From Candidatus Iainarchaeum sp. (GTDB lineage Archaea > Iainarchaeota > Iainarchaeia > Iainarchaeales > JACQJH01): a stretch of DNA of 32,000 nt. The notes beneath the pieces were generated by a model. That model worked only from the letters and a program-made list of their open reading frames with translations, was not told the origin of the DNA and ran no database searches. The position numbers were made by a program, and so were the translations under genes. The stretch covers positions 270,001-302,000 of the forward strand of contig JACQJH010000001.1 of NCBI GenBank assembly GCA_016205145.1. The letters are read 5' to 3'. This document shows, piece by piece, positions 921-19,900 of this stretch. Numbering within the stretch: position 1 is the stretch's first letter; the number at the start of each line of letters is the position of its first letter.

Positions 921-1580
921 ATGGTGAACAAGCAGGTTGTCCTTGAAACTATCAAGAGAATGCGCGATTCCGGCCTGGACAATGCGGACATCGCCAAGAC
1001 TTTGCGCGACATCGGCATTTCCGACAATGAAGTCGAGGAATATCTTCTGGAGCTTGAGGACAGCTATGCAGGCAAAAAGCCCAAGCCCGCAAAGGCAGGG
1101 GAAGGCGATGCGCAGTCAGCCGAAGGCCGGGGCGGGGAACGCCAGGGTGAAGAACGCGATAGCGAAGCGGAAGAGGGGGATGCTGAAGGCGGGGCCGGAG
1201 ACGAGGTTCAAGGGCAGGCAGAGGACGATGATAATGACATTGACATTGCCGAAAAGACGGCGTTGCGCGTGAAAGAGCATTTGGACCGCAGGCTTGAGGA
1301 AGACGCAATGCAGGATGCCGAACTGCAGAACCGGCTTGACAGCCACTCCGAAAAGCTTGAGGCCATGCACGAGAACGTGCAGGACATCCACGGCAAAATC
1401 GCTTCGATTGCATCAGGGCCGTCGAACCGCGATCTGGAGAAGCGCCTTGCCGACATCAATGAAAGGCTCTCCGCTTTGGAGGCGCAGGTCAACGACCTCA
1501 AAGCATTGTCCACGGCATCAAAGGCTTTGCTTGCGAAAATCCTTGAAACCGACAGGCGCATTCTCGGCGAAAAAGATTAA
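921..1580 (+). CDS. Hypothetical acidic coiled-coil protein with a short helical N-domain, an E/D/G-rich linker and a C-terminal coiled coil
   Basis: The track ORF is 906..1580 with a TTG start; I prefer ATG 921 (MVNKQVVLETIKRMRDSGLDNADIAKTLRDIGISDNEVEEYL). The linker is GEERDSEAEEGDAEGGAGDEVQGQAEDDDNDID. Heptad-like segments include LEEDAMQDAELQNRLDSHSEKLEAMHENVQDIH and LEKRLADINERLSALEAQVNDLKAL. It is the only convincing plus-strand gene in the window. Confidence 0.8.
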   Translation: MVNKQVVLETIKRMRDSGLDNADIAKTLRDIGISDNEVEEYLLELEDSYAGKKPKPAKAGEGDAQSAEGRGGERQGEERDSEAEEGDAEGGAGDEVQGQAEDDDNDIDIAEKTALRVKEHLDRRLEEDAMQDAELQNRLDSHSEKLEAMHENVQDIHGKIASIASGPSNRDLEKRLADINERLSALEAQVNDLKALSTASKALLAKILETDRRILGEKD

Positions 1581-1609
1581 CTGTTTCTGACTTTGCAAAC
1601 ACCTTACTC

Positions 1610-2649: not shown

Positions 2650-2985
2650 TTAATGCTGCCCTCCGAGAACCGAACGCACGTTGACCGTTCCCCAGAGTAT
2701 GACCGAGAAGAACCCGAAAGTCCAGAGAATGAACAGCACGTAAACCGATGAGAAGATGTAAACCCATTTTATTGCAAGGAAATATATCAGCACCCCCGAA
2801 ATTATGAGCGACGGCACGCCGGGGCCGAGGAAATTCCTCACTGTCGTGAAGATGACGAGCACGAGTATGAGCCTGAAAACGATGTTTGCCGGAGTGAAAA
2901 AATACATTATTGTCGGCACGGCAATGGCAATGAGCAGCAGGAACAGGAAAACCAGCACGAGCGCGTTGATTCCTTTTTCGTTCAT
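2650..2985 (-). CDS. Small polytopic membrane protein (4 TM)
   Basis: 111-aa ORF, almost entirely hydrophobic (INALVLVFLFLLLIAIAV, FRLILVLVIFTTV, SLIISGVLIYFLAI, VYVLFILWTFGFFSVILW). Its ATG overlaps the upstream stop (ATGA at 2982-2985) and GGAGG lies 6 nt upstream. Confidence 0.85.
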   Translation of the reverse strand: MNEKGINALVLVFLFLLLIAIAVPTIMYFFTPANIVFRLILVLVIFTTVRNFLGPGVPSLIISGVLIYFLAIKWVYIFSSVYVLFILWTFGFFSVILWGTVNVRSVLGGQH

Positions 2986-3317
2986 CTTCTGCCTCCTTCA
3001 TGGCGCATCGGCCCCATCATCGGCATTCCGCCGTGCGCCTGGTCCCCGCTCTGCGGCAGCGCCCAGAACACGTCTATCAAAAACTGCGTCATTCCGAAAG
3101 TAAGCATGAGGTATAGCACGAATATTCCGCCGAAAAACCGCCAGTAATCGAACACCACAAACCAGGAAATGATTGCAATCAGGAGCAATGCCATCGGGCC
3201 TTTTCCGAGGTGGTTGAGTATGAACGAAACGATCGTCATGAGCGCGAAAATCTTCAGCAGGAAGTTCGCGTCCGACAGGAGCTCGCCCAGCAAAAGCAAT
3301 GCCAAATCCGGTTGCAT
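2982..3317 (-). CDS. Small membrane protein (3-4 TM) with a Gly/Met/Pro-rich tail; first gene of the small-membrane-protein operon
   Basis: The track ORF is 2982..3356 (124 aa). I prefer ATG 3317 (MQPDLALLLLGELLSD...). The 13 extra codons (MEIIYSRKTIGNI) are AT-rich promoter-like DNA containing a TATA box 23 nt upstream of 3317. The tail is QSGDQAHGGMPMMGPMRHEGGRR. Confidence 0.8.
   Translation of the reverse strand: MQPDLALLLLGELLSDANFLLKIFALMTIVSFILNHLGKGPMALLLIAIISWFVVFDYWRFFGGIFVLYLMLTFGMTQFLIDVFWALPQSGDQAHGGMPMMGPMRHEGGRR
2992..2996 (-). promoter_or_regulatory. Shine-Dalgarno-like GGAGG for the 111-aa membrane protein gene
   Basis: The minus strand reads GAAGGAGGCAGAAGATGAAC, placing GGAGG 6 nt before ATG 2985, inside the 3' end of the upstream gene. 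Confidence 0.45.
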
Positions 3318-3340
3318 AATATTGCCTATGGTTTTTCTAC

Positions 3341-3348
3341 TATAAATA
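3341..3348 (-). promoter_or_regulatory. TATA-like box (TATTTATA on the minus strand) for the small-membrane-protein operon
   Basis: It lies 23 nt upstream of ATG 3317. A second motif, CTTTTTAATC (3358-3367), directly abuts the giant-1 stop codon (3368-3370). Confidence 0.45.
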
Positions 3349-3367
3349 ATTTCCATTGATTAAAAAG

Positions 3368-6300
3368 TCAGCTTATGCACGTATTCCCGGCTGACAGCCC
3401 CGACTCGAAGCCCTCGACGCTTTTCCCGCCTGCACCATTTTCCTCGAACAGTTTGAGCGCATTCCAGTAGAAAACGCTTTTGTCGCCGGAATCCGAAAGG
3501 CAAACAGTCTGGTCTCCGACCATTCTGAACAGGTCGTTGAGCTCCTGCACCGTGCCATTTGATGCGAGATTGTTTTTCTTCATCCCGCCCAAGCCGTTCA
3601 GGTTCACGGTCGTGCCGGTTTCGCTGTTCATTGTCGTGAACGAAAGCGTTCCGTCTCCTGGAGAAAGCGCCTTCAGCACATAGTTCGAGTTCGCGGGCGT
3701 AAAGACAACGGTTTTGAGGAAAACGTTTCCCTTCTTTTCCGCGCTCTGCCAGTCGACCGCGTAAGCGTTTTCGGCGCCCGGAACCGGGTCCGAGGAATTT
3801 CCTTTCCTGTCGGGCCTGTCCCAGAAAACGTTTGAAGCAAAGTCGCCTGAGAAGTCCTTGCAGTTCGACATTCCGGCCCAGTACGCGAAAACCGTGCCAA
3901 GGGTTTTCGGCTGGCCGGCCTGGAACAACTGGTAGTAGGCCGAGAGCCTGCTTCCATCCGTTTTGTCGGAAGACATTTTCATTACAACCGGTGTTGCATA
4001 ATTCGGCGAGAATGTCATCTCTTTGTCAGTCCCGGTTGCGCGCCTGACTGATAGCAGTGCTCCGCGCGTGTCAGCAAGGCCGTTGATTTTTGCCGGGTCG
4101 GCCTCGATTTTTGTCCTCAGCAATGTCATTGCATCCGAGTTTTCAATCGGCTTTGTTTCGATTATGTCCTGCGAGTTTTCAGTCGAGATTTTCACGGCTT
4201 GGCCGCTGTTCAAATAGTTCAGGCCATAGCCCTGCCTGCCATTGCTTGTGCCGACCCCGACCTTTCCGTCGAACGGCAGATAATAGAATGTCGATTGCGG
4301 TTCAGGATAGCCCTTGTAATAGAATTTCACAAGGATTTTTGCCTTGGGCTTTCCGTCCGGGCCGAAGAATTTCCAGCCGTCGCCGAAGTCGATCCAGGCC
4401 TGTGCGTCATACGTGCCTGCATCGGGCAGTTTGTCGGAGCTTGTAGTGTATTGGAAGTCAAGCCTGTCAGTGTCAGCAAAGTAGTCCGCAAACTTTCCCG
4501 TTCCATCGGAATCGAAATAGCTGGGCGTGTTGTAGAATGTCTTGTGCGCGTAGAATTCCGCGAAATCCTTCTGGAAATCGTCCGAATAACCGTCCCTTAT
4601 CAGGTTGACTCTTGGCCTGAGCAGTTTCCTGAGGGTTTCCTTGTCGGGAACGTGCTCCGTCCAGTTGGGTTCCTGCTGGTCGGCGTTTATGAGTTCTCCG
4701 AATGTTTCCAGGTCGCGGTCAAAGAACGCCTCTACTCCGGAAACTCCGGGCATCACTTCGTATGTCGTGTTCTTCAGCCAGCATTCCTCGTCCGCAGGAG
4801 GGGAAAAATTCCAGAACAGCAGTTGCAGGTTGTCTGTTGAGTAATGCGTTGCGTCGCTTGCCGGCAGTGCGTTCACGAAACCGGGTGCAAACAACGCGTA
4901 TGCAATGAACGGGTGCCCGGATTTTCCCAATGCGTTCCCGTCGAATCCGAGTTCCGCTGAGCTGTTCCTTGCAACGCTGATCTCCTTTTCCTCGTCCCCT
5001 GACACCGCGTTTCCTTCGGTTCCGCGCAAACGGAAATGCACTTTTACTGTCCTGTCCTCCGAAGTCCTGTTGAACACCTCGACCGTGAATTTGAAATTGT
5101 CGTTTTCGTCCTTGTCGTAGCGCAGTCTCTGCAGGCCGATTTTTCCGGCAGGCACGTCCTTTTGGCTTGCAGTGCGGGTGTTTTCCTCGGCCACGCCCTG
5201 CCTTACTTTGTATTCGGGGTTGACCGGGCAAAAAAATACCGGGTTCGCGTCGAAGAATTCGCGCAGGAACTGCATTTTCTGCGTCAATGCAATGCTGAAC
5301 TGCGTTGCGTCGCAGTAAATGCCATCCGGATTGTCTGCATCACAGCTTTCCGCATTGATGTTGTCGCTTCCATCCGTTGTCCACTTCCAGTTGAGGTTGA
5401 CTTTAGGCAAGGCCCCTTCGCCCGTCCTTCCGTTTGCGTTGCATGCGAACACGTTGTTGCTTAACTGAACGGGCTGCCATTGCTGCAATTCCTTGGTTTG
5501 CACGCGGATGTGGAATTTCTGCGAATACGTGCGCGTTGAAATGCCATTGCAGCTTCCCTGTTCGGGCGAATCGCCTATGTTGTATTCGGCGAGCGTTCCG
5601 CTGCTGCATTCGATGTCATACGAGTCATCGCCCGTTCCATGGCTTCCGTTTTCATTGTCATGCCTGAAGTCGCCGTGCACGTGCTCATTCGCCGAGACTG
5701 TGAGGATGCCGTATTCCGGCAAATCCGACCCGTAGCCTTGGTTTGAAAAGTCTATTTCCTGGGTTTCGAATAATCCATCCCGCCCTTCCCTGAAATTCCA
5801 TTCCGGCTTTATTTTTCCATCGAAACCGCTCACAGAAAGCATGTCGTCTGATGTGTCGGGCGGCACTTTCAGCGAAGGGTCTTTCAGCGAGGTCGAGCCG
5901 CCCAGGTTTATGACGAATGCCGGAAGCGTGTTCACTGCATGAACGTCATGGCATGAAAAGAACAGGTCTGCCAACAACATGACCGCAAAGTATGCGATGA
6001 CTCCGATTGCAATGTTTATCGCGAACGATGTTCCAATCGTTGCCGCGGTTGTCCCGCCTGCAAGCGCGGCCGTCACTCCCCCGATTGAAACGCCGAGTCC
6101 GATGGAAAGCAAGGCGGTTACAGTAACGCTTACCTGGATGCTTGTCGCAATCAGGGCGGCGGTTTTAACATAGCTCCTGAACTTTGCCCTGTCAGTGTTC
6201 TGCAAATCCTTCCACACGCAGCCGTCAGCGCGCACCTTGACCTGTTCGATGTACGCGTTGTTGTACAGCGCTGTCTTGTCCTCGCTGCCGGGGAAAACTT

Positions 6301-9300
6301 TCAGGTCGTACCGGTCCATTGAAAAGTAGCCCATGCCCGCCCAAGGCCTGCCGTTTTCCCAGTGCGCCGGGTTGAATACAAGGATATCGTCCTTGCGCAG
6401 TTTTTTGGGCGCCCTTGAAGCGAAATTTCCGTAAACGTTTATGCCGTAAACCCCGGCTATGTCGCGGTCGCCGTCGACCTTTATTGTCTTGTGATTTGTG
6501 TTCGGGCCCGGCACCAGTTCGAAGTCTTTTTCTGACAGGCTCAGGCCGCCTTCGGTTCCGCCTGAGCATCTTCCGTCCTGGTAGCACAGCCTTATCCGCA
6601 CCGGCTGGCTTATGTTCGGGCAGTTTTCAATTGAAACCGTGATTTCGCCGGTGGGATCGAAGAATGGCGTGCCTGGATTGTCGGCGAGTTCGCGCCTGCC
6701 GTTTTCCGGAGAATAGCTGATGCAAGTTGAAAGGTTGACAAGGCTGATTCTTCCGCTGAAATCCCTTGTTGCCTGGGTTTCGTCGAAGCCGTGCTCGGAT
6801 TTTAGCAGGCCGTTAACCTGAATGTCGAATCCCGCATCATTGTTTTCCGCGCCGAGCTTTGAAGTGAAGACAAGGCTTGCGGAAACGCTTTGCCCGGCCG
6901 GAATTTTTTCAAGCACGCCGATGGGCACGTTCGGCGGCAATGCGTACAATCCGATTTCCCTTCCCGTGCCGTCCTTCAATGAAAGTGAAACGTCGCCGAG
7001 ATGGCCGCCGCTGTTGGGCTGGTACGAAAACTTCAATCCGTCCAGGGCAATCGGCGTGCCGTCGATTTCGCAGTTGTTGGTTATGCTGGAGATGTGCCCG
7101 TCGGTTTTCCCGTTGTCCGTGAAGTCAACCCAGTCGGGGTTGTCGATTGAAACGCATGGCGTTGCGGGAACGTCGCCGAGGGAAATCGCAACTTTCAGCG
7201 GCAGTTGCACGTCATAGGTTTTTGCGAACGCCGCGTTCTCGAAAGTGAAAAGCGCCTGGCCGTCCACGCTCTCGTTTTTGGCGATGAGCAGAGGTGAAAT
7301 GATTTTGGTTTTGATTATGCCTGAAACCTCTTTTTCCTCGAGGCCCGCAAGTTTCAGGCCATTGCCGGAGTCCACGCCGGTTTTAGCGCGCAGGAACGAA
7401 AGCATTGAAGTGTAGTCGAGCAGTGCAAAGAACCTGGAATTTTTTCCGGACAGGCCTGCCTCAGCAAGCCCCAGTTCGGCGCCGGAAAAATTTTTCATGG
7501 TCAGGGTTTCCTGTATTATTTCCTCCGTCCTGTTCCGCGAGTTCACGCCTGACGCGAGGCTTTCAGGCTCGAATGCGATTATTTCATCCGAAACCACGAG
7601 CTTCAATTGCGCGTCCTGCCAGTAGCCGATTTTTTCGGCTTCGAAAACAATTTGCGTCGATGGCGAGCTTGCCGGCAGATGGAACACGGCTTTTCCCTGG
7701 CCATCGCTCAGGCAGTTGTTGCCTGAAATGCATGAAAGCATTGTTTCGGTTCCGTCGGCAAGCCTTTTCCTCGCCTTCAACAGCACGTTCTCCAGCAGCT
7801 TCCCCTGGCGGTCTTTCACCGTCACAAGAATGTCTTTTTCCTCGAATGCGTGCAATTTGTCAGGTTCGGCTGACAGGACAAGCGACTCGTTTTTCCTTGT
7901 CCGGAAGCCGATTTTTTCCCTGAACAGTGTCTGTCCCGCGGAAAAGATTTTTGTTTCAAGCGAGTTCGCCTGCACCTTGCTGCCGCGTATCCGCAATTTC
8001 ACGAGCACGCTTTTTCCCTTTGAAAAGTTTGGCAGGGGGATTGCACTTATTTTGGATGCGTTGAAGTTCGCATTTTCGACAATGTTTGACTGCGTGTCAA
8101 GAACAGAATAGCCTTCGATTGCAATGCCGTTGTCCTCCGCGTTCCTGGAATCAACGCTTGAAATTGAAAGCGCGGGCTGTGCAAACTCCGCATCCGAGTT
8201 GTTCCTGATTATGAACGAAACCTCGTATGGCGCGAAAACAATGATGTCGTACGGCGGATCGAGGAAAAGGTTTTCGCGGAGGTCCAAGACTTTTTCGCCG
8301 GCATAGCAGAAATCGGAATCACAGCGGACCAGCACACCTTCCTGGAAATCGCTCAAGTCAAACGTTTTCGCGTACAGCTCTTTTTTTGACGCGGTTTCAC
8401 GCGCGGCCCCCAACTCGGTGTCGGCAGGCATCCTGCTGTAAGAGTCTCCGCTGGCAGTCCACGCCCTGTAATGCATTGGCAGCGGCGAGAACGCGGGCGT
8501 GGAACTTTTCACCACGACTTCAAAGCCGGCTTCAGCCACCATTTCTTTTCCGTCCGGTGCAAACCTTGCGTTCGCCCATTTTCCGGGCATGCCTGTCTGC
8601 GGCACGGGATTTTCCGCATCAGTGCCCGCCGGAGGATTGTAAGCTGCGCCCTTTTCAATTGCCGCGTTTCCTATGTCCACTGCGCCTACGAAAAGGTTTT
8701 CGCCGGCAATTCCTGCCTGGTCGCCTGCCCTGAAATGGACGCCGGCGCCTTCAACGCCTGCGGGAACGCTCAGGCGAAACAATGCAATGTACGAATGGCC
8801 TGCTTCCATTGCATTGCTTTGCCTGTAATTGTCAAGCATTCCAATGAATTCGATTTTTGGTCCGGCAATGCCGCCTTGCAGTGGCAGTTCGCCGGAAAAT
8901 TCCGCCTTGGTGTTTGCGAAAAGCGTTTTCGGGATTGTCGTGAAAGAAACATGGCCGGGCGAGGTTATGACCACAAAGGCTTTCTGCCCCGCCCTTATTT
9001 TCTGCGAAGCCTTTCCGTTTGGCAGATCAAATTTTGCAATGCTTTCTCCGAGCATGTTGAAGAATTCGGCCTGCGAGTTTTGGAGCGGCGCGCCTTGTTC
9101 ATCAGTTGCCTCGATTTCAACATCGGCATCGCCTATGACCAGCCTTACCCTGAATTCGTTCAGCTCCTTTTTCAGGATTTTTTTGGCAATCCCTTTCGGC
9201 GCGGCGTATGCCTGCGCCTTGTACGCCGAAGGGTAAAGCGTTTCCTCTTTCACTCCCGCCCACAATGCAACGCCGTTGGCGTCGGTTGAACGCGCGGGAT

Positions 9301-10831
9301 ACGGCGCGAGATTCCCGTTTTCAAACAACAGCTTTGCAATCGCGCCTTCGACCGCAACATCGTCCTCGTCGAAAACCTGCACCCTCACCTTTCCGGAGTT
9401 TTCCTCCGTGACTTTTTCCAGTTCGATTGAAACGTTCTGCTCGCCGCTGAGCGAGGCAATGCCTGCCGTGCCGTAAAAATAGTCGTCCTGCGAAACCACG
9501 ATTGCCAGGTTTGCCTGCGGGTCGAAGAATGAAACGATTGCGTCTTCGCCGCCTGTGCCGGTTTTTCCCGTGCCTATTTCAGCGCCGTTTGCATTGCGCA
9601 CGGAAACAACTGCATTTCCAATCCTGCCGCCCGAACCTTTTTCAATTGCTGAAACAACGAGTCTGGCGCGCACGTTCCTTGAAACAACCGCATTCACGGC
9701 CGTTTCCTGTGCTGGCAGGACTTCAATGCCCTGCTGAGAATAGCCGGAATACGCGCCGTTCGCATCCGAAACAACAACAGAATACCTGCCCGGCAGGAGG
9801 CCCTTGAAGACTGCCTGTCCATAATATTCCGTGTTTTTTTCCGCGACCAGCCCGCCTTCGAAATCATTTAGCCGCACCGAAAAATTCGTTGACGTGACAA
9901 TGCCTTGCTTTTCATCCGCTATCGTCACCCGGATTTTTCCCGCAATCGCCAAGTCCGCCCCGGTTTCGCGGATTTTTCCCTCGCAGTCATTTGCGCACGC
10001 GTTTGCGTCCTCGCTGTTCTGGCATACGCCGTCACCGCAAACCGCGCCCGCCCCGCTCACGCCGCCGGACAAGAGCTCTGGTGTCAAGGTGAGAGTGTTG
10101 ACGGGCTGGGGCAATTGGAATGTTTCCTCGCCAAAGCCGGACGCAAGCACAGTCGCGGAGAGACCGATGCACTCTGAAACGTTTTCAACGATTATTTTTC
10201 CGTCGCCGTCGTCGTCCGCCAAAACTTCTATGGGCAGAGTGCCCTGCCTGCATGAAAGCCTGACGCTTGTGCCCTTTCTTGCAACGCGCTCGCCGCTTGG
10301 GGCCTTGAAAATTATCGTCTTAGTTGGAACTTCCACGCCGGCATATTGCAGGACGATTTTCTGTTCCACGCCGGCCTGAACCGCAAACGTGCCGGCGAAA
10401 CCTGAAACGGTTTTGCCGTTCACAAGCTGTTCCCTCACGGCAATTTCAATGCTGTCAGCATTTCCTGCCGCCACTGAAAACCTGCCATCTGCGCCGGAAA
10501 CAGCTTCGCCGGCAGCGCTTCCAACAATGAAATTGATTTTCACACTTGACAGGCCCTGTCCGGTCAGGTCAACAACCGCAAAATCCGCGTGAACGCCCTG
10601 ATTTGGCATTGCCTGCTGCAAAAAAATGGCCGCGCCGAACACTAGAACAAGCAAAACCATTGCCAGCAGCAATGCAAACGACGGCACAACCCTGTCGACC
10701 GCGTCAACAACGCCGTAAACAGGCGCGCCCTTCGCCTGCAATGCGTCAAGCAGGGAATAATACCTGTCTTCCGCCGAATAATAGAGTTCTTTCAGTTTTC
10801 CAAGCAAGCCCATGTAGAACAGCCTTTTCAT
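3368..10831 (-). CDS. Giant membrane-anchored surface protein, paralogue 1 (2487 aa)
   Basis: Uninterrupted 7.46-kb ORF. It has the N-box GLLGKLKELYYSAEDRYYSLLDALQAKGAPVYGVVDAVDRVVPSF and the TM helix ALLLAMVLLVLVFGAAIFL. Beta-sandwich repeats follow, e.g. KIRVTIADEKQGIVTSTNFSVRLNDFEGGLVAEKNTEYYGQAVFKGLLPGRYSVVVSDANGAYSGY. It also has a CGDGVCQNSEDANACANDC motif, a central hydrophobic block and a C-terminal module (NPDGIYCDATQFSIAL, DGYSDDFQKDFAEFY, FYYLPFDGKVGVGTSNGRQGYG). It is collinear with giants 2 and 3. An alternative start is ATG 10813 (MGLLGK). Confidence 0.97.
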   Translation of the reverse strand: MKRLFYMGLLGKLKELYYSAEDRYYSLLDALQAKGAPVYGVVDAVDRVVPSFALLLAMVLLVLVFGAAIFLQQAMPNQGVHADFAVVDLTGQGLSSVKINFIVGSAAGEAVSGADGRFSVAAGNADSIEIAVREQLVNGKTVSGFAGTFAVQAGVEQKIVLQYAGVEVPTKTIIFKAPSGERVARKGTSVRLSCRQGTLPIEVLADDDGDGKIIVENVSECIGLSATVLASGFGEETFQLPQPVNTLTLTPELLSGGVSGAGAVCGDGVCQNSEDANACANDCEGKIRETGADLAIAGKIRVTIADEKQGIVTSTNFSVRLNDFEGGLVAEKNTEYYGQAVFKGLLPGRYSVVVSDANGAYSGYSQQGIEVLPAQETAVNAVVSRNVRARLVVSAIEKGSGGRIGNAVVSVRNANGAEIGTGKTGTGGEDAIVSFFDPQANLAIVVSQDDYFYGTAGIASLSGEQNVSIELEKVTEENSGKVRVQVFDEDDVAVEGAIAKLLFENGNLAPYPARSTDANGVALWAGVKEETLYPSAYKAQAYAAPKGIAKKILKKELNEFRVRLVIGDADVEIEATDEQGAPLQNSQAEFFNMLGESIAKFDLPNGKASQKIRAGQKAFVVITSPGHVSFTTIPKTLFANTKAEFSGELPLQGGIAGPKIEFIGMLDNYRQSNAMEAGHSYIALFRLSVPAGVEGAGVHFRAGDQAGIAGENLFVGAVDIGNAAIEKGAAYNPPAGTDAENPVPQTGMPGKWANARFAPDGKEMVAEAGFEVVVKSSTPAFSPLPMHYRAWTASGDSYSRMPADTELGAARETASKKELYAKTFDLSDFQEGVLVRCDSDFCYAGEKVLDLRENLFLDPPYDIIVFAPYEVSFIIRNNSDAEFAQPALSISSVDSRNAEDNGIAIEGYSVLDTQSNIVENANFNASKISAIPLPNFSKGKSVLVKLRIRGSKVQANSLETKIFSAGQTLFREKIGFRTRKNESLVLSAEPDKLHAFEEKDILVTVKDRQGKLLENVLLKARKRLADGTETMLSCISGNNCLSDGQGKAVFHLPASSPSTQIVFEAEKIGYWQDAQLKLVVSDEIIAFEPESLASGVNSRNRTEEIIQETLTMKNFSGAELGLAEAGLSGKNSRFFALLDYTSMLSFLRAKTGVDSGNGLKLAGLEEKEVSGIIKTKIISPLLIAKNESVDGQALFTFENAAFAKTYDVQLPLKVAISLGDVPATPCVSIDNPDWVDFTDNGKTDGHISSITNNCEIDGTPIALDGLKFSYQPNSGGHLGDVSLSLKDGTGREIGLYALPPNVPIGVLEKIPAGQSVSASLVFTSKLGAENNDAGFDIQVNGLLKSEHGFDETQATRDFSGRISLVNLSTCISYSPENGRRELADNPGTPFFDPTGEITVSIENCPNISQPVRIRLCYQDGRCSGGTEGGLSLSEKDFELVPGPNTNHKTIKVDGDRDIAGVYGINVYGNFASRAPKKLRKDDILVFNPAHWENGRPWAGMGYFSMDRYDLKVFPGSEDKTALYNNAYIEQVKVRADGCVWKDLQNTDRAKFRSYVKTAALIATSIQVSVTVTALLSIGLGVSIGGVTAALAGGTTAATIGTSFAINIAIGVIAYFAVMLLADLFFSCHDVHAVNTLPAFVINLGGSTSLKDPSLKVPPDTSDDMLSVSGFDGKIKPEWNFREGRDGLFETQEIDFSNQGYGSDLPEYGILTVSANEHVHGDFRHDNENGSHGTGDDSYDIECSSGTLAEYNIGDSPEQGSCNGISTRTYSQKFHIRVQTKELQQWQPVQLSNNVFACNANGRTGEGALPKVNLNWKWTTDGSDNINAESCDADNPDGIYCDATQFSIALTQKMQFLREFFDANPVFFCPVNPEYKVRQGVAEENTRTASQKDVPAGKIGLQRLRYDKDENDNFKFTVEVFNRTSEDRTVKVHFRLRGTEGNAVSGDEEKEISVARNSSAELGFDGNALGKSGHPFIAYALFAPGFVNALPASDATHYSTDNLQLLFWNFSPPADEECWLKNTTYEVMPGVSGVEAFFDRDLETFGELINADQQEPNWTEHVPDKETLRKLLRPRVNLIRDGYSDDFQKDFAEFYAHKTFYNTPSYFDSDGTGKFADYFADTDRLDFQYTTSSDKLPDAGTYDAQAWIDFGDGWKFFGPDGKPKAKILVKFYYKGYPEPQSTFYYLPFDGKVGVGTSNGRQGYGLNYLNSGQAVKISTENSQDIIETKPIENSDAMTLLRTKIEADPAKINGLADTRGALLSVRRATGTDKEMTFSPNYATPVVMKMSSDKTDGSRLSAYYQLFQAGQPKTLGTVFAYWAGMSNCKDFSGDFASNVFWDRPDRKGNSSDPVPGAENAYAVDWQSAEKKGNVFLKTVVFTPANSNYVLKALSPGDGTLSFTTMNSETGTTVNLNGLGGMKKNNLASNGTVQELNDLFRMVGDQTVCLSDSGDKSVFYWNALKLFEENGAGGKSVEGFESGLSAGNTCIS
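3371..5950 (-). other. Conserved C-terminal module of giant 1 (about aa 1627-2487), function unknown
   Basis: It aligns by eye along its length with giant 2, e.g. LIRDGYSDDFQKDFAEFYAHKTFYNTPSYF vs IMRDGFTQDFQKDFDEFAKTKSFFATPSYY, and FSPNYATPVVMKMSS vs YSPSFATPVLLRVSS. A 24-nt stretch is identical at DNA level (5285-5308 = 12777-12800). Confidence 0.65.
5950..6170 (-). other. Central hydrophobic hinge of giant 1 (about aa 1556-1626), 2-3 predicted TM-like segments
   Basis: YVKTAALIATSIQVSVTVTALLSIGLGVSIGGVTAALAGGTTAATIGTSFAINIAIGVIAYFAVMLLADLFFSC is about 70 residues, nearly free of charge and rich in G/A/T/I/V. Confidence 0.6.
8935..10600 (-). repeat. Intragenic tandem array of carboxypeptidase-regulatory-like/Ig-like beta-sandwich domains (giant 1, about aa 78-632)
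   Basis: A recurrent ~80-90 aa pattern: alternating hydrophobic strand (xVxVxVxD), G..l..A.V, T...G.a.f..l.pG.Y.v.v...gy. Examples start at RARLVVSAIEKGSGGRIGNAVVSVRNANG and GKVRVQVFDEDDVAVEGAIAKLLFENG. Confidence 0.6.
10607..10831 (-). other. Conserved N-terminal box plus signal-anchor TM (giant 1)
   Basis: See the three-way alignment in findings. The hydrophobic helix begins only at about aa 53, so this is not a classical cleaved Sec signal. Confidence 0.7.
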
Positions 10832-10976: not shown

Positions 10977-13900
10977 TTATGGCAGTTCCCTTGGCCCGGT
11001 CTTGGGTTCGGTCTGCGTGCACGCGGCTTCCGCGGCATTCATCTGGCCCTGCATGTTTTCAAGTATGGGCTTGGGGTTCCAGAAGAACGCGCTGAAAGCC
11101 CTTGAAGAAGAGCCATCAACACACAATGCGCCGTCGTTGACAAGATTGAAAACGTCCTGCAAAGTGTTTATGCCGCTGCCCGGCGAATTGTTCGCCATGC
11201 CGGAAACTCCGACCAATGCGACCTTGTCTCCCGCCTCGTCCGCGGTTGAAAGGCTGGCGCTCTGCGAAGCCGAAGTGATGTAAATCCTTGACGAAACGTT
11301 TTGCGGCGTGAAAATGACAGTGCTCAAGCCGACGCTGGTCGAAGCTCTCTTGGGCGAGCACCATTCAAAGCCGTAAGAAGTGGAAACCGCATCCCCGAGA
11401 ACGCGCGCGCACTGTTTCTCAAGGGCCTGCCTGTCCCTGGCATTGTAAAACCTTTCCGCCGCAAGCGCGTCGTCAAAGTCCCTGCATGCTCCCCCAACGC
11501 CCGTCCATTCCGACAGGTATGTCGAGGTTCCGAACGGAGTGCCGCCAATGTCGACTCCGTAGAAAGCGTAAGCAGATTCGGCAACCGGGCTTGAAACCCT
11601 CAACAATACCGGCGTCGCAAAGCTCGGGCTGTAATCCAGCTTTGTTGTTTCGCCTTGCGTTGAAACGCTCAGAACTATTCCGCGTTCCGTCTGGTTCAGT
11701 GTCCTGAAATCGTTGTTGAAGCTTGCCAAAATCCAGCCGTTTGGCACGGGCAATGAAGTCGGCGAATTGGTTGCAAACACCGGCTGTGAGGAATCAGCAT
11801 TGATTTTGATTGACTTTTCCGATTCTTGCCTGAAGTTGACGCCATAGCCCTGCCTGCCATTCGCGCTGTCCAATCCGACTCTTCCGTCAAACGGCAGATA
11901 ATAGAACGGGCTCTCCGGGTTCGGCGCGGCTTCTCTCGTCAGCTTGACTTCGATGAAAACATCGGGCTTTCCGTCCCTGTAAAAGTCCCAGTTTTCGTTG
12001 TTGAACTTGATGTTCATTTCAACCAAATATTTGCCTGCTTCGGCAAAGCCTATTGCCTGGCCGGGCACAATGAATTTGAACCTGTTCGTGTCGCCGAACA
12101 GCTCTCCAAGCCCGTCGTTTTCGGTGTAATAGCTTGGCGTTGCAAAGAACGACTTTGTCTTTGCGAACTCGTCGAAGTCCTTCTGGAAGTCCTGCGTGAA
12201 ACCGTCGCGCATTATGCTCGCCTCAAACCTCAAGTCCTTCAACGCCTTCTCCGAACCAGGCAGTTTGCCCCGTTCAAGCTCGGTCGCAACAACGTAATCG
12301 GAGAACTTCTTTGTGCTGTAATCCCCGCAGTCCTGCAATCCCGAGAAACCCCATGCAAAGTCGCTGTTCAAATGGTCGTTTGCCTTTTCCGCGTTCTTGC
12401 AGTCGGCGCACAATGCGACTGTGGCGTTCGCGTCAATCTGGTACTGGCCCTGCCTCAGGCCGTCAACTATGCAGCTTGTGCTTGACTTTGTCTGCACTGA
12501 AACGTCTTCCTCGCATTCCTTGACAACCGAGCCGTCAGCCGCCTTGACAGTGGTCTTCACTTTCGCCTGAACCGCCTGCGCATTCGAATTGCTGACCGTT
12601 ACGACAACCTCGCCGGTGTTGTTGCCGAGCTTCCTGACCTGGGTCCTCGTTATCCCCGCATCCGCGTCAATTTCGCTCAACGACTGTTCCCTTATGGACG
12701 AAACCGATTCGGGTGAAGCGCATTCGAACGGCCTGTTGGCCTCGACAAAGTCCCTGAAATCCTGCAATTTCTTGAGCAATGCAATGCTGAACTGCGTTGC
12801 ATCACAGTAGATTCCATCCGGGTTCGAGGCATCGCAGCTGTTTTCCTTGACACTGCTCCAGCTCCAGCCTATGCCCTTTGCAAGGCCGATTGCGGGCAGG
12901 GCCTCTTTTCCGGTCGAGCCGATCCTTGCGCCAAGCTGGCAGTTGTTCAAAGTTACCGCCGGGCAGGGGAAAGTGTTCGGGCCGCATTCCTTGGGATCGA
13001 ATGAATTGAACTGCAAATGGAATTTTTCGAGTATTTTGTTCCTGTCCTCTGTTGTCTTCTTTTCATTGGCTTTCGGCTGGTCGGGCTCCCTTTTGCCCTT
13101 GTAGCCTTCGGTTTCAAACTGCTGCCTTCTCGCCTGCACCTTCAACAGCCTGAAAAACGGCACTGTCGGGTCGGCCTGCTTTATTCCCTTTGAATTGATG
13201 AACGCCAGATCCTGCAGATAGTTCGCAAGCAGGGGATCATCCTGCCTTGGAATGCTTGAATTCGTGTCAAGAATCTGCAATACGATGTCCTTGCTTTCCT
13301 CTTCAGCAATAGTTGCCGTGCCCGCGCCGGTGGCCGGCTCGATTTTTTCGCCCGTCATCAGCAATTTGATTTCCCCGACAAGCGCATCCTTGGCAATGAT
13401 TGTAAACTTCACGTCATCCTGGTTGTTGTAAGCCATCCACGTGCCGAAAATCAGGCCATACATGCCGTAGCTGTAAGGATTGGGCTTGCCGAGAATGGCC
13501 GAACCGGCGCCGATCAAAACACTTGTCATGAGCTGTGGCAGTCCGCCCTGCCCGCCAAGCGCTCCGCCGCCGGTCAAAATGTAGCCCATCGGATTCTCTG
13601 CAAAAGTTGGATATTGGCCCGAACCCATCTGCGGCCCGCCGCCAAACAGCGTGCCCTGCTGTCCAAACAAATCGTACCCCGTCAAAGGCGCGGTCACAAG
13701 GCCGGTGGAAGGCGAAACATCCGAGCCCTGCGCCAGGCCGGCGATGGAGGAATGCGAAATGTCTTCTGACAAGCTGGCCGACTGTGAAGTCCATTGCGTG
13801 CACGCGTCGCTGTCGCCGGAATCGCATTTGACTTTCAATGCTTCAAGCCCTGTCACTTCAAAGATGTTGGTTCCTGATGATTCAAGGCTTTTTGACTTGT

Positions 13901-16900
13901 AAACCGCGGTATCTTGTGTACTGCCCCGGTGCCTTATAGTGTAACGTTCGGCATAGTTTTTGCTCGTGTCTTTGTAGGAATATTTGTAGCTGACAAAACA
14001 GAATCCTGTATTGGGTGAAGTATACCTGTATGGGCAGTTGTTGCTTGCTGTCTTAGCAACCAAACCAGTGGTAGCATTTTTCAAGAATGCGGCTCGGACA
14101 GTGTCCGGCGTCACGGTTATATTGCCCACACTGTGTGGCTGGCTGTCATTAAGTGTTGTCGCGCCAGCCCCCCAATTTTCTTTTGAAGTGCTGTATTGCA
14201 CGGTATTGTCCACAGTAATCCTAAAACGGGCAAGAACAGTTTGATTAGATGTCCTATATGTGACATATTTGTACCAGTTTGTGGCCAAAAAAGAATCAAC
14301 GTCTTTGGTTTTGCCCGGTTGGTTGGGCACCGGTTCCTGTGTTCCGGACCATCCGACAAAAGTTTTGCTCAAATCAACCGTGCCGGTTCCTTCCGCACCG
14401 GGAGCGGGTTTTGGTGTTCCAGTTACAACTGTCGACCGAGGCCCGTCGCCGGATGTGTTGAATGCAACAATATAATAGAAATAAGTTTTCGCGTTTGCCA
14501 ACCCTTGGTGTAAAAATTCCGCAATTTGGACTGTTTCTGCTAGCACATACGGCGTGGTATCTGGCTCCGCGGTAAATCCGAAATAAATTTTGTATCCTGT
14601 CGCGCCGGCAACAGCTTCCCAAGTCAACGTTATTTTTGCATCTCCTTCATCAACCGTTATTCCTGCAACTTTTTTTGGTTTTGTCGCTGCAGGGGCCTGC
14701 CCGCTACTGATTGATATTTCCTCAGATTCCCCCTGGCCTATAATTTTTCCGCTGCTATCGGCTGCTTGGACGAGGAAGCGGTAGTTTCCAGGACTCAATT
14801 CATCAAACACTGTTGCATCAACGGTTGACCCCAATGACCTGTCTGCAAGTGAATGATATTCCTCTTTTATGACATATCTGCTTGCACCCTCGACTAGTGT
14901 CCATGACACAGTGGCCGCGTTGCCGTTGGGTTGTGCTGTTACAGTTATTTCTTTCATTCCGGTTCCTGCGCCTGGTTCTTGTGTCTGTCCGGCAATAACT
15001 TTGACTTTTAGTGTTATTATGTTTCCGTTGCAATTTGCGGTTATTGTCGTGTCCCCGATTGCTATTGCGGTTATGGTTGTTGTCTTTCCGCTTGTCGGGG
15101 AAACCTCTGCAATGGATGCCTCTTGTGTTCTCCAAGCAATGCTTTCGCAGTTTTCCGCCTGCAGCGCCTTTGTTTGTCCGACCTGCAATTCTATTGTGTG
15201 GGTATTGTTTATTGTTTGTCCGCCACTGATTATTTCAAAGCCGCTTCCGCCTTCAGCTTTACTTTCACTCATTATAAATTTTATTTTTGCCTCTGCCGTG
15301 CTTTCCAGGTTCAATGCCTTGTTTCTGGCAATGAATTTGAGCTGGAATTCATTGGGCAGTTTTTTGATGTCAAATACTTTTATTGTAAATGCCGGGATGT
15401 CGTTTTCCTTTGTAACAGTCCAGTCAGTCGTGGATTTTAGGCTGCCGCTGTCCCAGTCGTATTCGGTTACTTTATCGGGGTTGTCGATTTCGCCTATAAA
15501 TGTGATTTCCCCGGCCTTGCTGACATTTATCTCATTGGTTTTATTGCTTGTAAGGAGTTCAAGTGGGCGTCCATTCGGACTGAGTATTCTTGCTTCGCCG
15601 AGCTGGTCGGGGTCGATGACGTGGACTATAATCGTGTTCGAAACCACTTCGCCTTGCGTATCTGTCGCCTTGAGTCTTGCCTGTATCATATAGTCTCCAG
15701 GTTTCGGGGCTGTCCCAGTATATGTTTCCCCGTTCCGTGTGGTGATTGGCACGACTTCGCCGTTGCGCAACCATTCTATTTCGCGGTCTGCACCGTGGAT
15801 TGTTTCGTTATACTCTGCGACAAACTTTATTTCGTCGTTGGGCTTGAAAGGCGGCTCGCTTAACAGCCTGATTTTGAATCCTTCCGGCGCTTTAAGGCTT
15901 TTTATTTCGCCTGCAATCTTGACTGTTTTGATTATTTCCTGCGCCTTTTTATTGATTATGGCTGTCATCGGCACGGTAAGTGTTATTTCGTCGACTTTGA
16001 CTTCGTCTATGTTTTCAAATTTGCTTTGCCTGTCCTTTGAAATGACTATAGAGTACTGGCCGTTCTGGTTTGGTCCCGCAACGCTGTCTATTTTCCAGTC
16101 CGGCCACTCCTTGTCGGCTGAGAATCCTCTGCCCGAGCTTATGCTGACGTTTCCGCCGCGCCAGCTTATCTTGTCCTTTTGTATCTGCGTTATGGCCGTG
16201 CCCTGCTGCGGCGTGAGTTCTGCAGCAGCCCGTATTCTCGGATAACCCGTTGCCGGGTCGTTCGGATCAATATATATGACGCCTGTTGCAGTAACCACGG
16301 CCTGCATTTCCTGTTGCGTCAGCGGCTTTATTTCTTTTTTGCTCGCCCCGTAGTATTGTCCTATCGCGCCCAATGCCATCATGAGCAGGCCGGTTTTGAG
16401 GCCTTCCATGAGGGCTTTTCCGAAGTCTTTTGTGCGCGAAGTGATTTCGACTTTTTTTTCCGAGCACTTGTTCAAGAGCTGTGCCGTGTCATAACCGTCG
16501 AACTGGTTTGTGGGGTCGTCGTAGACGTCGAACTCGTATTTGCTCAATTCAAAGCAGCCGTCCGGCGCGATGCGCGCCCTGACCATTTTCAACAGCCTTT
16601 CCTCGGTCTGGCCGAAGGGAGTCGCGTTCACAAATACCGGGTACTGTCCGGGATTGTTGTTTTCCGCGAGAATCTGGATTGCCTTGGTTTCCTTTTCCCC
16701 GAGCTGGAAATTGCTTTCGCTTAAATTGAGCTTTGACTGGAGTTTGAACTGCGTTGCCTGGCCGCAGCCAAGCGTTTCAATGTTGAATTCCCCGCTTTCG
16801 CCTTTTTTCATGTTGACTATGCCCTTGTCTATGCGGACGCAGTCCTTGAAATTGACTGCCGCGATTTCAACCGTCATCTTGTCGTTGAGCGTCTGGCTCC

Positions 16901-19900
16901 CGCTGTCGGTTTTGTTGCCTGCCTGGAATTCGATCGTCGCTTTTGCGCTTCCGCTTGTTCCCGCGTCAGGCGTGAACACCAGTGTGAGGGTCTGGCTTTC
17001 CTCCGGTTCCATTCTTGCAAGGATTGTCCTGTAATAGCCGTCCCTCAGTTCCTTTGTGAACTGTTCGCTTCTCAACTCGAATGTTCCGATGCTGTTGCTC
17101 TGCCAGTCGATTTTCGCCTGAATCTGTTCCAATGGGATGGGTGTCGAGGCGACTGTGCAGTTGTTCTGCAATGTCACGGAAACCTGCACTGGCGAGCCTT
17201 CTGTCGAGGTTTTCCATTCCTTTTTGCTTATCGTGAAGCAGGTCGGAGTGTCGGCTTCTCCCCCCACGCCGATGGAAATCTTGACGGGCAATTCGAAACT
17301 CCATTCTTCATCAAGCCCTTCAAGCGTCGCAATAAGAGTTCCGGACAGGTTTGTCGCCTGTGAAACCCTTCTGCCGAGGTCGGAGAGGTTTGCCCTTAAA
17401 GTGAAGCTTGACTTGTCGTTTGCCTTGATTGTTTCGCCTTTGAATGTTTCAAGCCATTGCGAGACCTGGTCTTCGCTGATGTAGCCGCGCAAGTCGCCTT
17501 GCAGTTCGAATTGCCTGACTTTGAGGTTGAACTCGGTCCTGTTTGTTATGTCGAAGACTGCCGTGTTGTCCGGCCTTGTCTGCGCATTGAGCGTAAGGCC
17601 GAGCGTGTCGGGCGACAATTCCGCGATTTTGTCGTTCACGTTGAGCGCGGTTTCAAACGTCTTGTATTCCTCTTTTTCGACGAACAGCTTGAGCTTTTCC
17701 CCCGGCATCTGGCTTGGCAGTTGTATCTGCGCTATTCCCTTGACTGTCGTGTCTGCCTGCAGCAATGTCGAGTTGAACCTGTCCTTTATTTTGACTGCCG
17801 CATTTTCGACTTCGAGTTTCGTGTTCTTGTCCTTGACTGACACGGTTATCTCGTTCTGCACGCCTGATGCGAGCAAATCGGGCCTGATTTGCACGTCAAA
17901 CTCTTTTGCGGGGTCGACTGTTATTGAAATGTTCTTTTCGTACCTTATCCTCTGCCCGCTTCTCAATAGTATTTTGATTGTCTGGCTGCCCGGAGCCTGA
18001 GGCGAGAAGTTTAGCGTTGTGCTTATCGCGTCGCCCGGCTTGAAGTCCTGCACGTTTATCCAGGCGGTTTCAAACGCGTTCACGTCGCCTGATTTTTTTC
18101 CGTTCTGGCTGCCATAGACCGTGTAAGCGCCCAAATCCATTTTTTCTTCCGGGTTCTGGATTTTCATTGTGGCCTGCGGGAAAGTGTCGACGTCGTTCCC
18201 GGAATTATTCTGTATGGTGAAGTTGAACACGTACGGGTTGAATATTTTGGCAGTGAAGTCATTGTTGACTGTGGTCAGAATGTCCTCTTTCCTGTCAAGT
18301 ATGCTGCCGGAGAAGCAGAACCTGTCGTTGCAAAGCGTTTCGGTTCCGACCTGGCGCGTTTCCGTTTTTGCGTTGGCGTAAAGGCCTTGCTTGCCCCCCG
18401 CATTTTCACTTTCGCCGAGCCCGGTGTCAAGGGGATCTCTCTTCCACCGGTTGTCCTGCGTTATTGCCCAGGCGCGGTAGAATATGTTGAGTTCGTCTGA
18501 AACGCCTGCGGTTTTCTTGACTTTGATGTCGGCCGTGAACTCTATTATGCCTGACTGGAATGACTGCCATTCAGCGTTGAACCATTTTGCCTCGTCAAGC
18601 GTTTCCTGTATCTGGCTGTCCTGCGCATAATTGTCGGGCGGATTGTATGACACCGATTTGATGACTGCGGGGTTTGCCGGCAGGTTCAGTTTTTTTATGA
18701 GCAACTGGTCGGTTTCAATCCTGTTCGTGTTTCCCGTCCTGACGTGCACGCCCACGCGCCTGTAATTCCTTGTGTTGTCCTGCCTTGGAATGTGCAGTTT
18801 GAATTTTGCCGTATACTCTTCGCCTTCCGTGAGAACCGTTGCAAGGTCTGCGCCCTTGTAGAGGCCGGCAAGCTCTATCTGGACGTCGCCGCTGATTTCT
18901 TCCGGCTCAAGCGTTGCGTCTATGACTGTCGCGGAGTTGGGCTGTATGTCGTACACTATTGTCGTGTAACTGCCATAGCCTTCCTTTGAGACTACGGCGT
19001 AAACGCTTTTGTCCGCCTTTGTGGTGTATGTCAGTATTCCGTCGGGGCTTTCAACCGGCCTTGAGCCTCCTCCGACCACTTCCCTGAAAACCGGGTCGTA
19101 GAATGTGACGTCCGCAAATTGTATGGGCTGGCCGTCCTTGTCTTTCACGTGCACTTCGATTGTGCCGTCCGGGATCTGCAAGGTTACGACAAGCCTCTGC
19201 TTTTCGTACGCGTTCTGCACGAACTTGACCGGGTCGCTCCAGCCTGCTGTGGAGCCTTTGAATGCGAATGCCTTGTATGTTCCTGTGGGCGCGATGAATT
19301 CGGCTATGCCGTTGACATCGGTTGTTTTTTGCGCGTATCCGAGGCTGAAGCCCTCTTCAGTGTACAGCTTTACCGTCGCGTTCCTGATCTTTTTGCCCTC
19401 GTCGCTTAAAACCTGCACCTGCAATTGGGCGCCGCAGCTGCTGTTGCCCGGAATGAATCTTTCCATTTCGACTATGCGCAAAGTGTTGTTCGGCACTATT
19501 CCGGAGAGCCTTTGGGGACAGTATCCTGCATGGTCTATTGTCATATCGTATGGCGTGTCCTCTTCCACGCTGAAGACTGCGTTGAAATCAGTGCTTGAGG
19601 TTGTCTTTGTCTCGATTTCCCGCCCGTCCCTGAAGAGCGTTGCTATTGCGCCGCTTATGCCGGAACCGTTGTCCTTGTCGACCGTTTTTATCCTGATGGT
19701 GTGCAGTCCGCTTAGCGTTCCACCGCCCCCTCCGCCGGACTGCAGTGTTATCGTTATGGTTTCCCTTCCGTTTGCCTGCACTGAAACGCTTTGCGATGTT
19801 TTTGAAGCATAGTTTGCCGTCGAAGAGGTTCTTGCAAAGTATGTTCCCGGGGAAACGTCGAACGACGCTGTGCCGCCGATTGCGTCTTTTGTGTCAACGG

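Follow-up and report, generated by a model that had tools for sequence, protein, structure and literature searches.

Hydrophobic hairpins that enter a membrane are known from several settings. In helical-hairpin anchors, a stop-transfer segment is followed by a segment that re-initiates translocation, and a marginal helix is aided by its neighbour. In alpha-pore-forming toxins (the colicin pore domain, diphtheria toxin TH8-9, ClyA/Hbl/Nhe), a hydrophobic hairpin or beta-tongue stays hidden within an amphipathic bundle of helices for as long as the protein is in its soluble form. Class I viral fusion proteins with internal fusion loops (filovirus GP2, arenavirus GP2 and avian sarcoma/leukosis virus Env) combine a hydrophobic, Gly/Ala-rich loop between two cysteines with a separate transmembrane anchor, and the filovirus loop is stabilised by its internal disulfide (PMC6926192). 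Among DPANN archaea, cytoplasmic bridges and other intimate cell contacts have been seen by microscopy, with the molecular agent unidentified (PMC11329633). Here we examined a charge-free hydrophobic block in the middle of giant 1, one of three giant proteins encoded in a 32,000-nucleotide stretch of Candidatus Iainarchaeum sp. (assembly GCA_016205145.1, contig JACQJH010000001.1, positions 270,001–302,000; hereafter the window, meaning the whole stretch analysed). In the way it works, the element resembles helical-hairpin anchors and insertion loops, and it belongs to no named family. It is most likely one instance of a two-armed, cysteine-bracketed, membrane-buried loop present in about a third of the protein family to which giant 1 belongs.

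The minus strand of the window forms one long gene array that includes the three giants. The features of giant 1 are, in window positions:

3368–10831, minus strand: giant 1 open reading frame (ORF), 2,487 amino acids (aa), laid out as N-terminal tail and anchor, N-module, hydrophobic block and C-module
10601–10831, minus strand: conserved N-terminal tail and signal anchor, with the anchor helix at aa 53–71 (window 10619–10675)
6164–10600, minus strand: N-module, aa 78–1556, beta-rich, with immunoglobulin-like (Ig-like) and CarboxypepD_reg-type domains, assigned from Pfam matches in paralogues and from BLAST matches to giants 2 and 3 and to relatives P0002–P0011
6218–6220, minus strand: Cys1538, in the C.W motif that closes the N-module; upstream bracket of the junction
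6089–6163, minus strand: first arm of the block (H1), aa 1557–1581 (TAALIATSIQVSVTVTALLSIGLGV), marginally hydrophobic
6026–6088, minus strand: connector, aa 1582–1602, Gly/Ala/Thr-rich and uncharged; in paralogues, inserts as long as ~880 aa occupy this site
5957–6025, minus strand: second arm (H2), aa 1603–1625 (FAINIAIGVIAYFAVMLLADLFF), the sole transmembrane-grade segment of the block
5951–5953, minus strand: Cys1627 (SCHD); downstream bracket of the junction
5903–5926, minus strand: LPAFVINL, opening the C-module (family motif LPD[YF][VI]INL)
3371–5956, minus strand: C-module, aa 1626–2487, beta-rich and multidomain; it contains invariant cysteines and the motif YCDATQFS

The block is genuine, and chance does not account for it. 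A sequence-only reading of this stretch had quoted a hydrophobic, membrane-type peptide from giant 1, and that peptide was found exactly, starting at aa 1558 (window 5957–6160, minus strand); the full block, TAAL...DLFF, covers aa 1557–1625 (window 5957–6163, minus strand). Its run free of D, E, K, R and H is 65 residues long (aa 1557–1621) and ends at D1622, so that the seventy uncharged residues first given were slightly generous. Charged residues make up 22.9% of giant 1, the second-longest uncharged run is the 33-residue region of the N-terminal anchor, and a run of at least 65 residues was obtained in 1 of 22,000 composition-preserving shuffles of the protein.

Hydrophobicity was measured as a simple 19-residue sum on a simplified form of the Hessa/von Heijne biological scale, without position weighting, and segments with a sum ≤ 1 were classed as transmembrane (TM)-grade. 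The N-terminal anchor (aa 53–71) scored –4.9, and the block begins 1,486 residues past it, in agreement with the anchor and the distance of about 1,500 aa proposed before. Within the block, H2 (aa 1603–1621) scored –0.8. H1 was marginal, with sums of +1.6 to +3 (best +2.4 over aa 1557–1586; the adjacent window 1573–1591, which runs into the loop, +1.6), and the middle 21 residues scored +4.8, which is not TM-competent. These sums indicate two arms rather than three spans, and the two to three membrane spans suggested by the sequence-only reading are not borne out. On the same scale the fusion peptide of human immunodeficiency virus (HIV) gp41 scored +2.2.

To place the block within its family, the three giants and eleven database relatives were compared by BLAST. 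Two shared regions were found, the N-module (giant 1 residues ~7–1550) and the C-module (~1690–2487), separated by a variable middle. In the relatives, a Gly/Ala-rich H1 follows straight after the C.W motif that closes the N-module, and H2 stands straight before an acidic patch, a cysteine and the LPD[YF][VI]INL motif ([DE].C...LPDY[VI]INL). Between them lies nothing, Ala/Lys-rich coiled-coil-like sequence, Cys-rich CC...C repeats with Pro/Thr linkers, or Ig/fn3 domains. Judged from these alignments, the junction is a hot-spot for the insertion of modules. Because giant 1 lacks any insert, H1 and H2 run together there and make up the 65-residue block. This composition of the block, as two fused family-wide segments that flank an insertion hot-spot, had not been recognised in the sequence-only reading, and neither had the possibility of a constitutive hairpin in the cell's own membrane.

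Hidden Markov models (HMMs) built for the two junction flanks located both flanks in 89 representatives. Junction length ranged from 5 to 877 aa (median 111). A TM-grade segment was present in 31 of the 89 and always lay 0–14 aa from the C-terminal end of the junction, that is, at H2. The same segment in 99 giants from genome loci formed a continuum from –5.3 to +13, with relatives reaching –4 to –5. Fused blocks were also found in P0021 (63 aa), P0054 (51 aa), P0145 (108 aa) and P0127 (150 uncharged residues). In a rough neighbour-joining tree of the C-module, TM-type members grouped in clades and had short junctions; H2 stays between –2.4 and –4.1 in these clades although identity is below 50%, with a CPxC-xxIG-IxV motif in H2 within clades. 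Alanine (18%) and glycine (17%) are abundant in the family's blocks, in line with the fusion- or insertion-peptide-like composition noted before. Long-insert members have Gly-rich H1 and H2 segments that are not TM-grade (for example YTVGGFMVGGLLGGLFG), with clear GGxxxGGxxGG patterns. Conservation, the absence of which had been named as grounds for abandoning the idea, is divided: site and composition are kept, sequence is not, and some members have no such element.

Many TM-type relatives also carry a CPxC motif (CPPC, CPVC, CPAC or CIPC) at the N-terminal end of H2; giant 1 is without it. Carriers include P0021, P0054, P0057, P0111, P0113, P0103, P0118 and P0078 and giants of loci L021, L023, L025 and L060. 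Together with the two bracketing cysteines, the motif places four cysteines around the hairpin, and it may mark a redox or metal site where the hairpin meets the membrane.

Next, cysteines and charges on the two sides of the junction were compared. Both bracketing cysteines were present in 64 of the 89 representatives and neither in 22, while the upstream cysteine alone was never found and the downstream one alone only three times (Fisher test, 6e-18, not corrected for phylogeny). Minimal members have ~20 residues between the two. This co-occurrence, at such close spacing in the minimal members, is the pattern of a disulfide-closed loop expanded by insertion, and it puts both flanks in one compartment. 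A Cys1538–Cys1627 disulfide is probably the staple at the base of the hairpin. Both flanks were net acidic, the downstream one strongly (4.1 D/E vs 0.5 K/R per 15 aa) and the upstream one mildly (2.8 vs 1.9), so both look 'outside'. Within the blocks themselves, 30 of the TM type (2,115 aa in all) contained 0.47 K+R per 100 aa, and the block of giant 1 contained none. A comparison of cysteines and glycosylation sequons on either side of the block, which had been recommended as a check, gave the same densities in the N- and C-modules (Cys 1.15% and 1.28%; N-X-S/T 0.81% and 0.93%). At least eight C-module cysteines are invariant, whether or not a member has the block.

AlphaFold2 models were consistent with an element that leaves the folded protein. 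For giant 1 residues 1400–2487 (24-sequence alignment), the mean predicted local distance difference test score (pLDDT) was 78.8 and the predicted template modelling score (pTM) 0.70. For relative P0081, whose H2 scores –4.1, the values were 81.7 and 0.76. The scaffold in both models was confident, beta-rich and multidomain; in the C-module of giant 1 many 10-residue blocks exceeded a pLDDT of 90, and the only longer helices were two at positions 443–488 of the modelled fragment. In contrast, the block of giant 1 had a pLDDT of 23–49, with a helix at 1551–1570 (< 45), a coil (23–33) and a second helix at 1603–1624, and the block of P0081 had 25–44, with only H2 helical. A low-pLDDT block set against a confident scaffold indicates an excursion that the chain does not pack against, and no buried beta core.

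We favour the reading that the block inserts into the cell's own membrane as a hairpin and leaves both modules outside, a tentative preference to which we give a probability of roughly 0.4. Sec-type export would begin at the N-terminal signal anchor. H1 would then act as a stop-transfer segment and H2 would re-initiate translocation, and the pair, a marginal helix beside its TM-grade partner, would partition into the cytoplasmic membrane of the producer as a helical hairpin; a shallower re-entrant wedge is the alternative form. H1, connector and H2 would leave the folded protein between Cys1538 and Cys1627 and return to the same point of its surface, while both the N- and the C-module would remain outside. 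This would give the protein a second point of attachment to the membrane, holding the junction and the C-module at the cell surface. Segments of such hydrophobicity are as a rule released laterally by the Sec translocon into the producer's membrane, whereas the HIV gp41 fusion peptide passes a translocon. We infer both that the hairpin lies in a lipid bilayer and that this bilayer is the cell's own; the latter is favoured because export starts at a signal anchor and because H2 of the family reaches –4 to –5, compared with +2.2 for gp41.

The resemblance to helical-hairpin anchors lies in the pairing of a TM-grade with a marginal arm, in flanks that, on indirect evidence, share the outer side and in the Sec-type N-terminal signal anchor. 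Unlike those anchors, the block has a loop devoid of positive charge, sits between huge extracellular modules (1,480 and 860 aa) and is bracketed by co-occurring cysteines; many relatives do without it, and in paralogues extracellular domains take its place. Several of these points weigh against an own-membrane hairpin. The connector, which would be cytoplasmic, is without K or R and so breaks the positive-inside expectation for the loops of TM hairpins. H1 is only marginally hydrophobic, and the P0081 model leaves it non-helical; across the family, H1 is kept in composition only, in neither sequence nor length. The element has been lost repeatedly or sporadically, with junctions of 5–30 aa inside TM-type clades. 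The cysteine co-occurrence is partly phylogenetic, and the disulfide itself is one that we infer. Finally, long-insert paralogues carry extracellular-type inserts at the hairpin tip (Ig/fn3 domains, Cys-rich repeats, Pro/Thr linkers), so the tip there points outward and not to the cytoplasm.

The uncharged connector, the weak H1 and the extracellular domains at the tip favour instead a latent loop meant for the membrane of another cell, an idea the sequence-only reading had also raised. According to this explanation, the hairpin is a trans-acting insertion or fusion loop outside the cell at the junction of a long stalk of Ig domains and the C-terminal head, shielded until contact, which then enters a host or prey membrane and anchors the cells to each other or perturbs or fuses their membranes. 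We regard it as unlikely, although it is the best placed of the alternatives. The blocks are Gly/Ala-rich and charge-free over 45–150 residues, H1 of giant 1 lies close to the gp41 fusion peptide (+2.4 vs +2.2), the hypervariability of the site is what an exposed surface for interactions would be expected to show, and the bracketing cysteines recall those of the filovirus GP2 loop. A peptidoglycan amidase gene stands in the same neighbourhood, and DPANN archaea do form cytoplasmic bridges and other intimate contacts (PMC11329633). However, known fusion peptides are far less hydrophobic than H2 is in many homologues (–3 to –5), and such an H2 should be captured by the translocon of the producing cell. 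Giant 1 has no flanking heptad-repeat or coiled-coil refolding machinery, and its C-module is beta-rich. When PDB and BFVD were searched with the AlphaFold2 model by Foldseek, no fold match to a fusion protein or toxin and no global match of any kind came up, only domain-level similarity to beta-sandwiches (TM score ≤ 0.13). A demonstrated host association of Iainarchaeota was not found in the literature searched, and many family members are without the element.

By analogy, the hairpin might be the cellular counterpart of a viral internal fusion loop that enters a partner-cell membrane, with the inserts of paralogues serving as alternative partner-recognition tips; this more specific proposal is doubtful. 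It has to contend with the greater length of the block (65–150 aa, compared with ~45 aa in viruses), with H2 sums of –0.8 to –5 where the viral loops score +2 to +9 on the same scale, and with the lack of flanking heptad repeats, six-helix-bundle machinery and sequence or fold similarity. The likeness to alpha-pore-forming toxins is a charge-free hairpin of 35–60 residues, rich in A, G, V, I, S and T, that inserts from outside. In contrast to the helical bundle of those toxins, the scaffold of the giants is beta-rich and the block is unpacked in the AlphaFold2 models; homology in Pfam or PDB was not found.

A further explanation, which we consider rather improbable, dispenses with lipid altogether. 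The block would mediate glycine-zipper-like association or docking, either between giants or with the small membrane proteins encoded nearby, or it would be tolerated low-complexity filler of a permissive loop. The tolerance of the junction for 5–877 aa fits this, as do the conservation of H1 in composition only and the Gly-rich arms below TM grade in long-insert members. The small-xxx-small spacing of TM glycine zippers (GxxxGxxxG) recurs in the arms, with nine small-xxx-small-xxx-small motifs in the block of giant 1, and four small polytopic membrane proteins are encoded directly downstream of the giant in 36–51 of 69 loci. Nevertheless, a charge-free stretch of 65–150 residues that includes a segment at –1 to –5 is incompatible with water, its hydrophobicity is kept within clades, and AlphaFold2 shows no packing partner in the chain. 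No clear association was seen between a TM-grade H2 and the presence of the small membrane-protein genes next to the giant (35% vs 25%). Unlike true zippers, the block of giant 1 has a single strict GxxxG, and the Pfam glycine-zipper models (PF13436, PF13488, PF13441) had no match in giant 1 (best match in a relative, E = 1.9, well short of the cut-off). More generally, a Pfam scan of the block and of the homologous Gly-rich segments, at E up to 10, returned nothing meaningful.

An odd number of spans, one or three, would place the C-terminal 860-residue module in the cytoplasm, as the sequence-only reading had considered. Such a topology might be read from the TM-grade of H2 alone next to a marginal H1, from the P0081 model with H2 as its only helix, and from the basic stretch just upstream of the block in giant 1 (RAKFRSYVK), but it is very improbable. 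The homologous C-module would need opposite sides of the membrane in different members, which is not plausible; junctions of 5–877 aa occur with an intact C-module, most of them without a TM-grade segment. The co-occurring cysteines, the equal cysteine and sequon densities, the invariant C-module cysteines and the acidic flanks, above all the one after H2, where K and R are almost absent and which is thus the opposite of a cytoplasmic flank, lead us to reject an odd span number and with it a cytoplasmic C-module; the middle segment, at +4.8, cannot be a third span. Least credible of all is a buried beta-rich core element or the beta-hairpin stem of a beta-barrel pore: giant 1 does show an alternation of apolar with small or polar residues (aa 1564–1586 and 1599–1612, z = 2.3 vs shuffles; hydrophobic moment 1.2–2.2 at 170–180 degrees vs 0.3–0.5 at 100 degrees), but this is not a family property (median z –0.3, above 2 in 3 of 43 members), AlphaFold2 predicts very-low-confidence helix and coil with no strands packed in the scaffold, and members fold with a junction of 5 aa.

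Two named comparisons were tried and dropped. The stem hairpin of beta-pore-forming toxins was ruled out because the alternation expected in two strands of ~20 residues does not extend across the family. A comparison with bacterial alpha-2-macroglobulin, in which the hypervariable bait region could be an analogue of the junction, was ruled out since none of the three giants contains the thioester motif CxEQ; the only links to it were sub-threshold bMG3/MG4 matches in Pfam and the domain-level Foldseek similarity mentioned above.

Similar segments had been proposed at the equivalent place in giants 2 and 3. The relevant features are:

10977–20738, minus strand: giant 2, 3,253 aa
16344–16415, minus strand: H1 homologue of giant 2, aa 1442–1465 (ALMEGLKTGLLMMALGAIGQYYGA), directly after the N-module homology; 19-residue sum +5.6
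13596–16343, minus strand: insert of giant 2, aa ~1466–2381, ~900 aa, with fn3 (PF00041, E = 5e-6) and Ig-like sequence, at the site of giant 1's block
13428–13595, minus strand: H2 homologue of giant 2, aa 2382–2437, Gly-rich, ending ...GLIFGTWMAY; sum +6.2
21386–29131, minus strand: giant 3, 2,581 aa
24884–25204, minus strand: Tyr/Gly-rich low-complexity tract of giant 3, aa 1310–1416, 107 residues (GYGIYQGYGYNPNAYSGALGAGYGYQSGAGYQ...), inside a 122-residue uncharged run
20530–20738 and 28920–29131, minus strand: N-termini of giants 2 and 3, with the same tail as giant 1

For giant 2 the proposal was right in that homologous Gly-rich segments exist, but these lie ~900 aa apart and neither is TM-grade. 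In giant 3 the Tyr/Gly tract starts where the N-module homology ends, and a comparable tract occupies this position in relative P0008; however, the tract of giant 3 is not hydrophobic and the junction-flank HMMs had no match in this protein. Giant 3 belongs to a divergent subfamily.

The family itself is defined by the succession of N-module, junction and C-module and is, as far as we found, undescribed: the literature search did not return a description of it. An exhaustive profile search with the C-module gave 812 representative clusters at E ≤ 1e-3, of which 530 also pass E ≤ 1e-30; the count is a lower bound, at least 812 clusters at 50% identity. Most members have 2,300–2,700 aa. Giant 1 matched the C-module profile with 1,002.8 bits and has the C-module motifs of the family (YCDATQFS and PFYYLPFDG.VG...GRQGYG) and its N-side features (tail motif, signal anchor and an N-module ending in C.W). 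The family is almost entirely confined to Iainarchaeota (Diapherotrites, DPANN). A scan of one genome per species yielded 196 loci, almost all labelled Candidatus Iainarchaeum, including Ca. Iainarchaeum andersonii and a complete 1.05-Mb genome, and tandem paralogous giants are the rule.

Pfam recognised CarboxypepD_reg, Big_1, SpaA and MG-type Ig-like domains in the N-terminal halves of the giants. The C-module had no sequence match in Pfam, NCBIfam, PHROGs or PDB, the profile search of PDB sequences giving only a chance match (E = 0.75); going by its predicted structure, this 860-residue module is possibly a new multidomain architecture. In all three giants a tail of ~45–50 residues with the motif YY..ED.YY..LD.L....PVY...D..D...PSF precedes a strongly hydrophobic helix, and tail and helix are kept in homologues from 39 loci. 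None of the family models matches this tail, which is presumably cytoplasmic and possibly a targeting or docking signal. Giant surface proteins of ultra-small symbionts such as nanohaloarchaea and bacteria of the candidate phyla radiation (CPR) share with the present giants a length of several thousand residues, an occurrence as tandem paralogues, a wealth of Ig-like domains and the setting of a reduced DPANN genome. They belong to a different family, distinguished from this one by the unmatched C-module, and no description of an internal, Cys-bracketed hydrophobic hairpin in them was found in the literature searched.

A split arrangement was seen at locus L002 (3333–9818; relative P0002), where a 1,154-aa protein whose N-terminus is of the giant type precedes a separate protein of 966 aa, which has an N-terminal hydrophobic segment of its own; two full-length giants come after these. 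The first two proteins may be a split giant.

The remaining genes of the array in the window are:

31300–31911, minus strand: Amidase_2 ORF, 203 aa
29332–31134, minus strand: 600-aa ORF, upstream of giant 3
between giants 3 and 2, minus strand: polytopic ORF, 168 aa
1679–3356, minus strand: five small membrane-protein ORFs, downstream of giant 1
2982–3356 (124 aa), 2650–2985 (111 aa), 2390–2614 (74 aa) and 2033–2356 (107 aa), minus strand: four small polytopic membrane ORFs, directly downstream of giant 1

The four small membrane-protein genes occur in the same order, right after the C-module of the giant, in the Iainarchaeota loci counted above. Their products are 45–70% identical between loci, far above the ~30% of the giants, and had no match in Pfam, NCBIfam or PHROGs; homologues of the 74-aa protein are all hypothetical proteins of Diapherotrites. 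The four are candidates for a membrane partner complex of the giants. A domain scan of the neighbouring small ORFs against the same three collections returned nothing but Amidase_2. This 203-aa ORF encodes an N-acetylmuramoyl-L-alanine amidase domain (PF01510, E = 4e-30) with no obvious signal peptide, and a peptidoglycan hydrolase in an archaeal, Iainarchaeota-like neighbourhood hints at interaction with bacteria. The 600-aa ORF has an N-terminal hydrophobic segment (QRAFNLFTALLSFMLILLAALLV); neither Pfam nor a tblastn search of the 69 related loci gave a match to it.

Giant genes take up a sizeable share of the sub-megabase genomes of Iainarchaeota, where they cluster with the four small membrane-protein genes, and the junction element defines how their products relate to membranes. 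If the hairpin is an anchor in the cell's own membrane, the giants would be surface-coat proteins pinned at two points, and the topology of their hypervariable site would be settled. If it acts in trans, DPANN archaea would have a first candidate effector for penetrating or fusing membranes, a process that has been seen by microscopy (PMC11329633). Either way, a Cys-bracketed hot-spot with interchangeable contents, be they nothing, a hydrophobic hairpin, a coiled coil, Cys-rich repeats or Ig/fn3 domains, is a compact and testable target.

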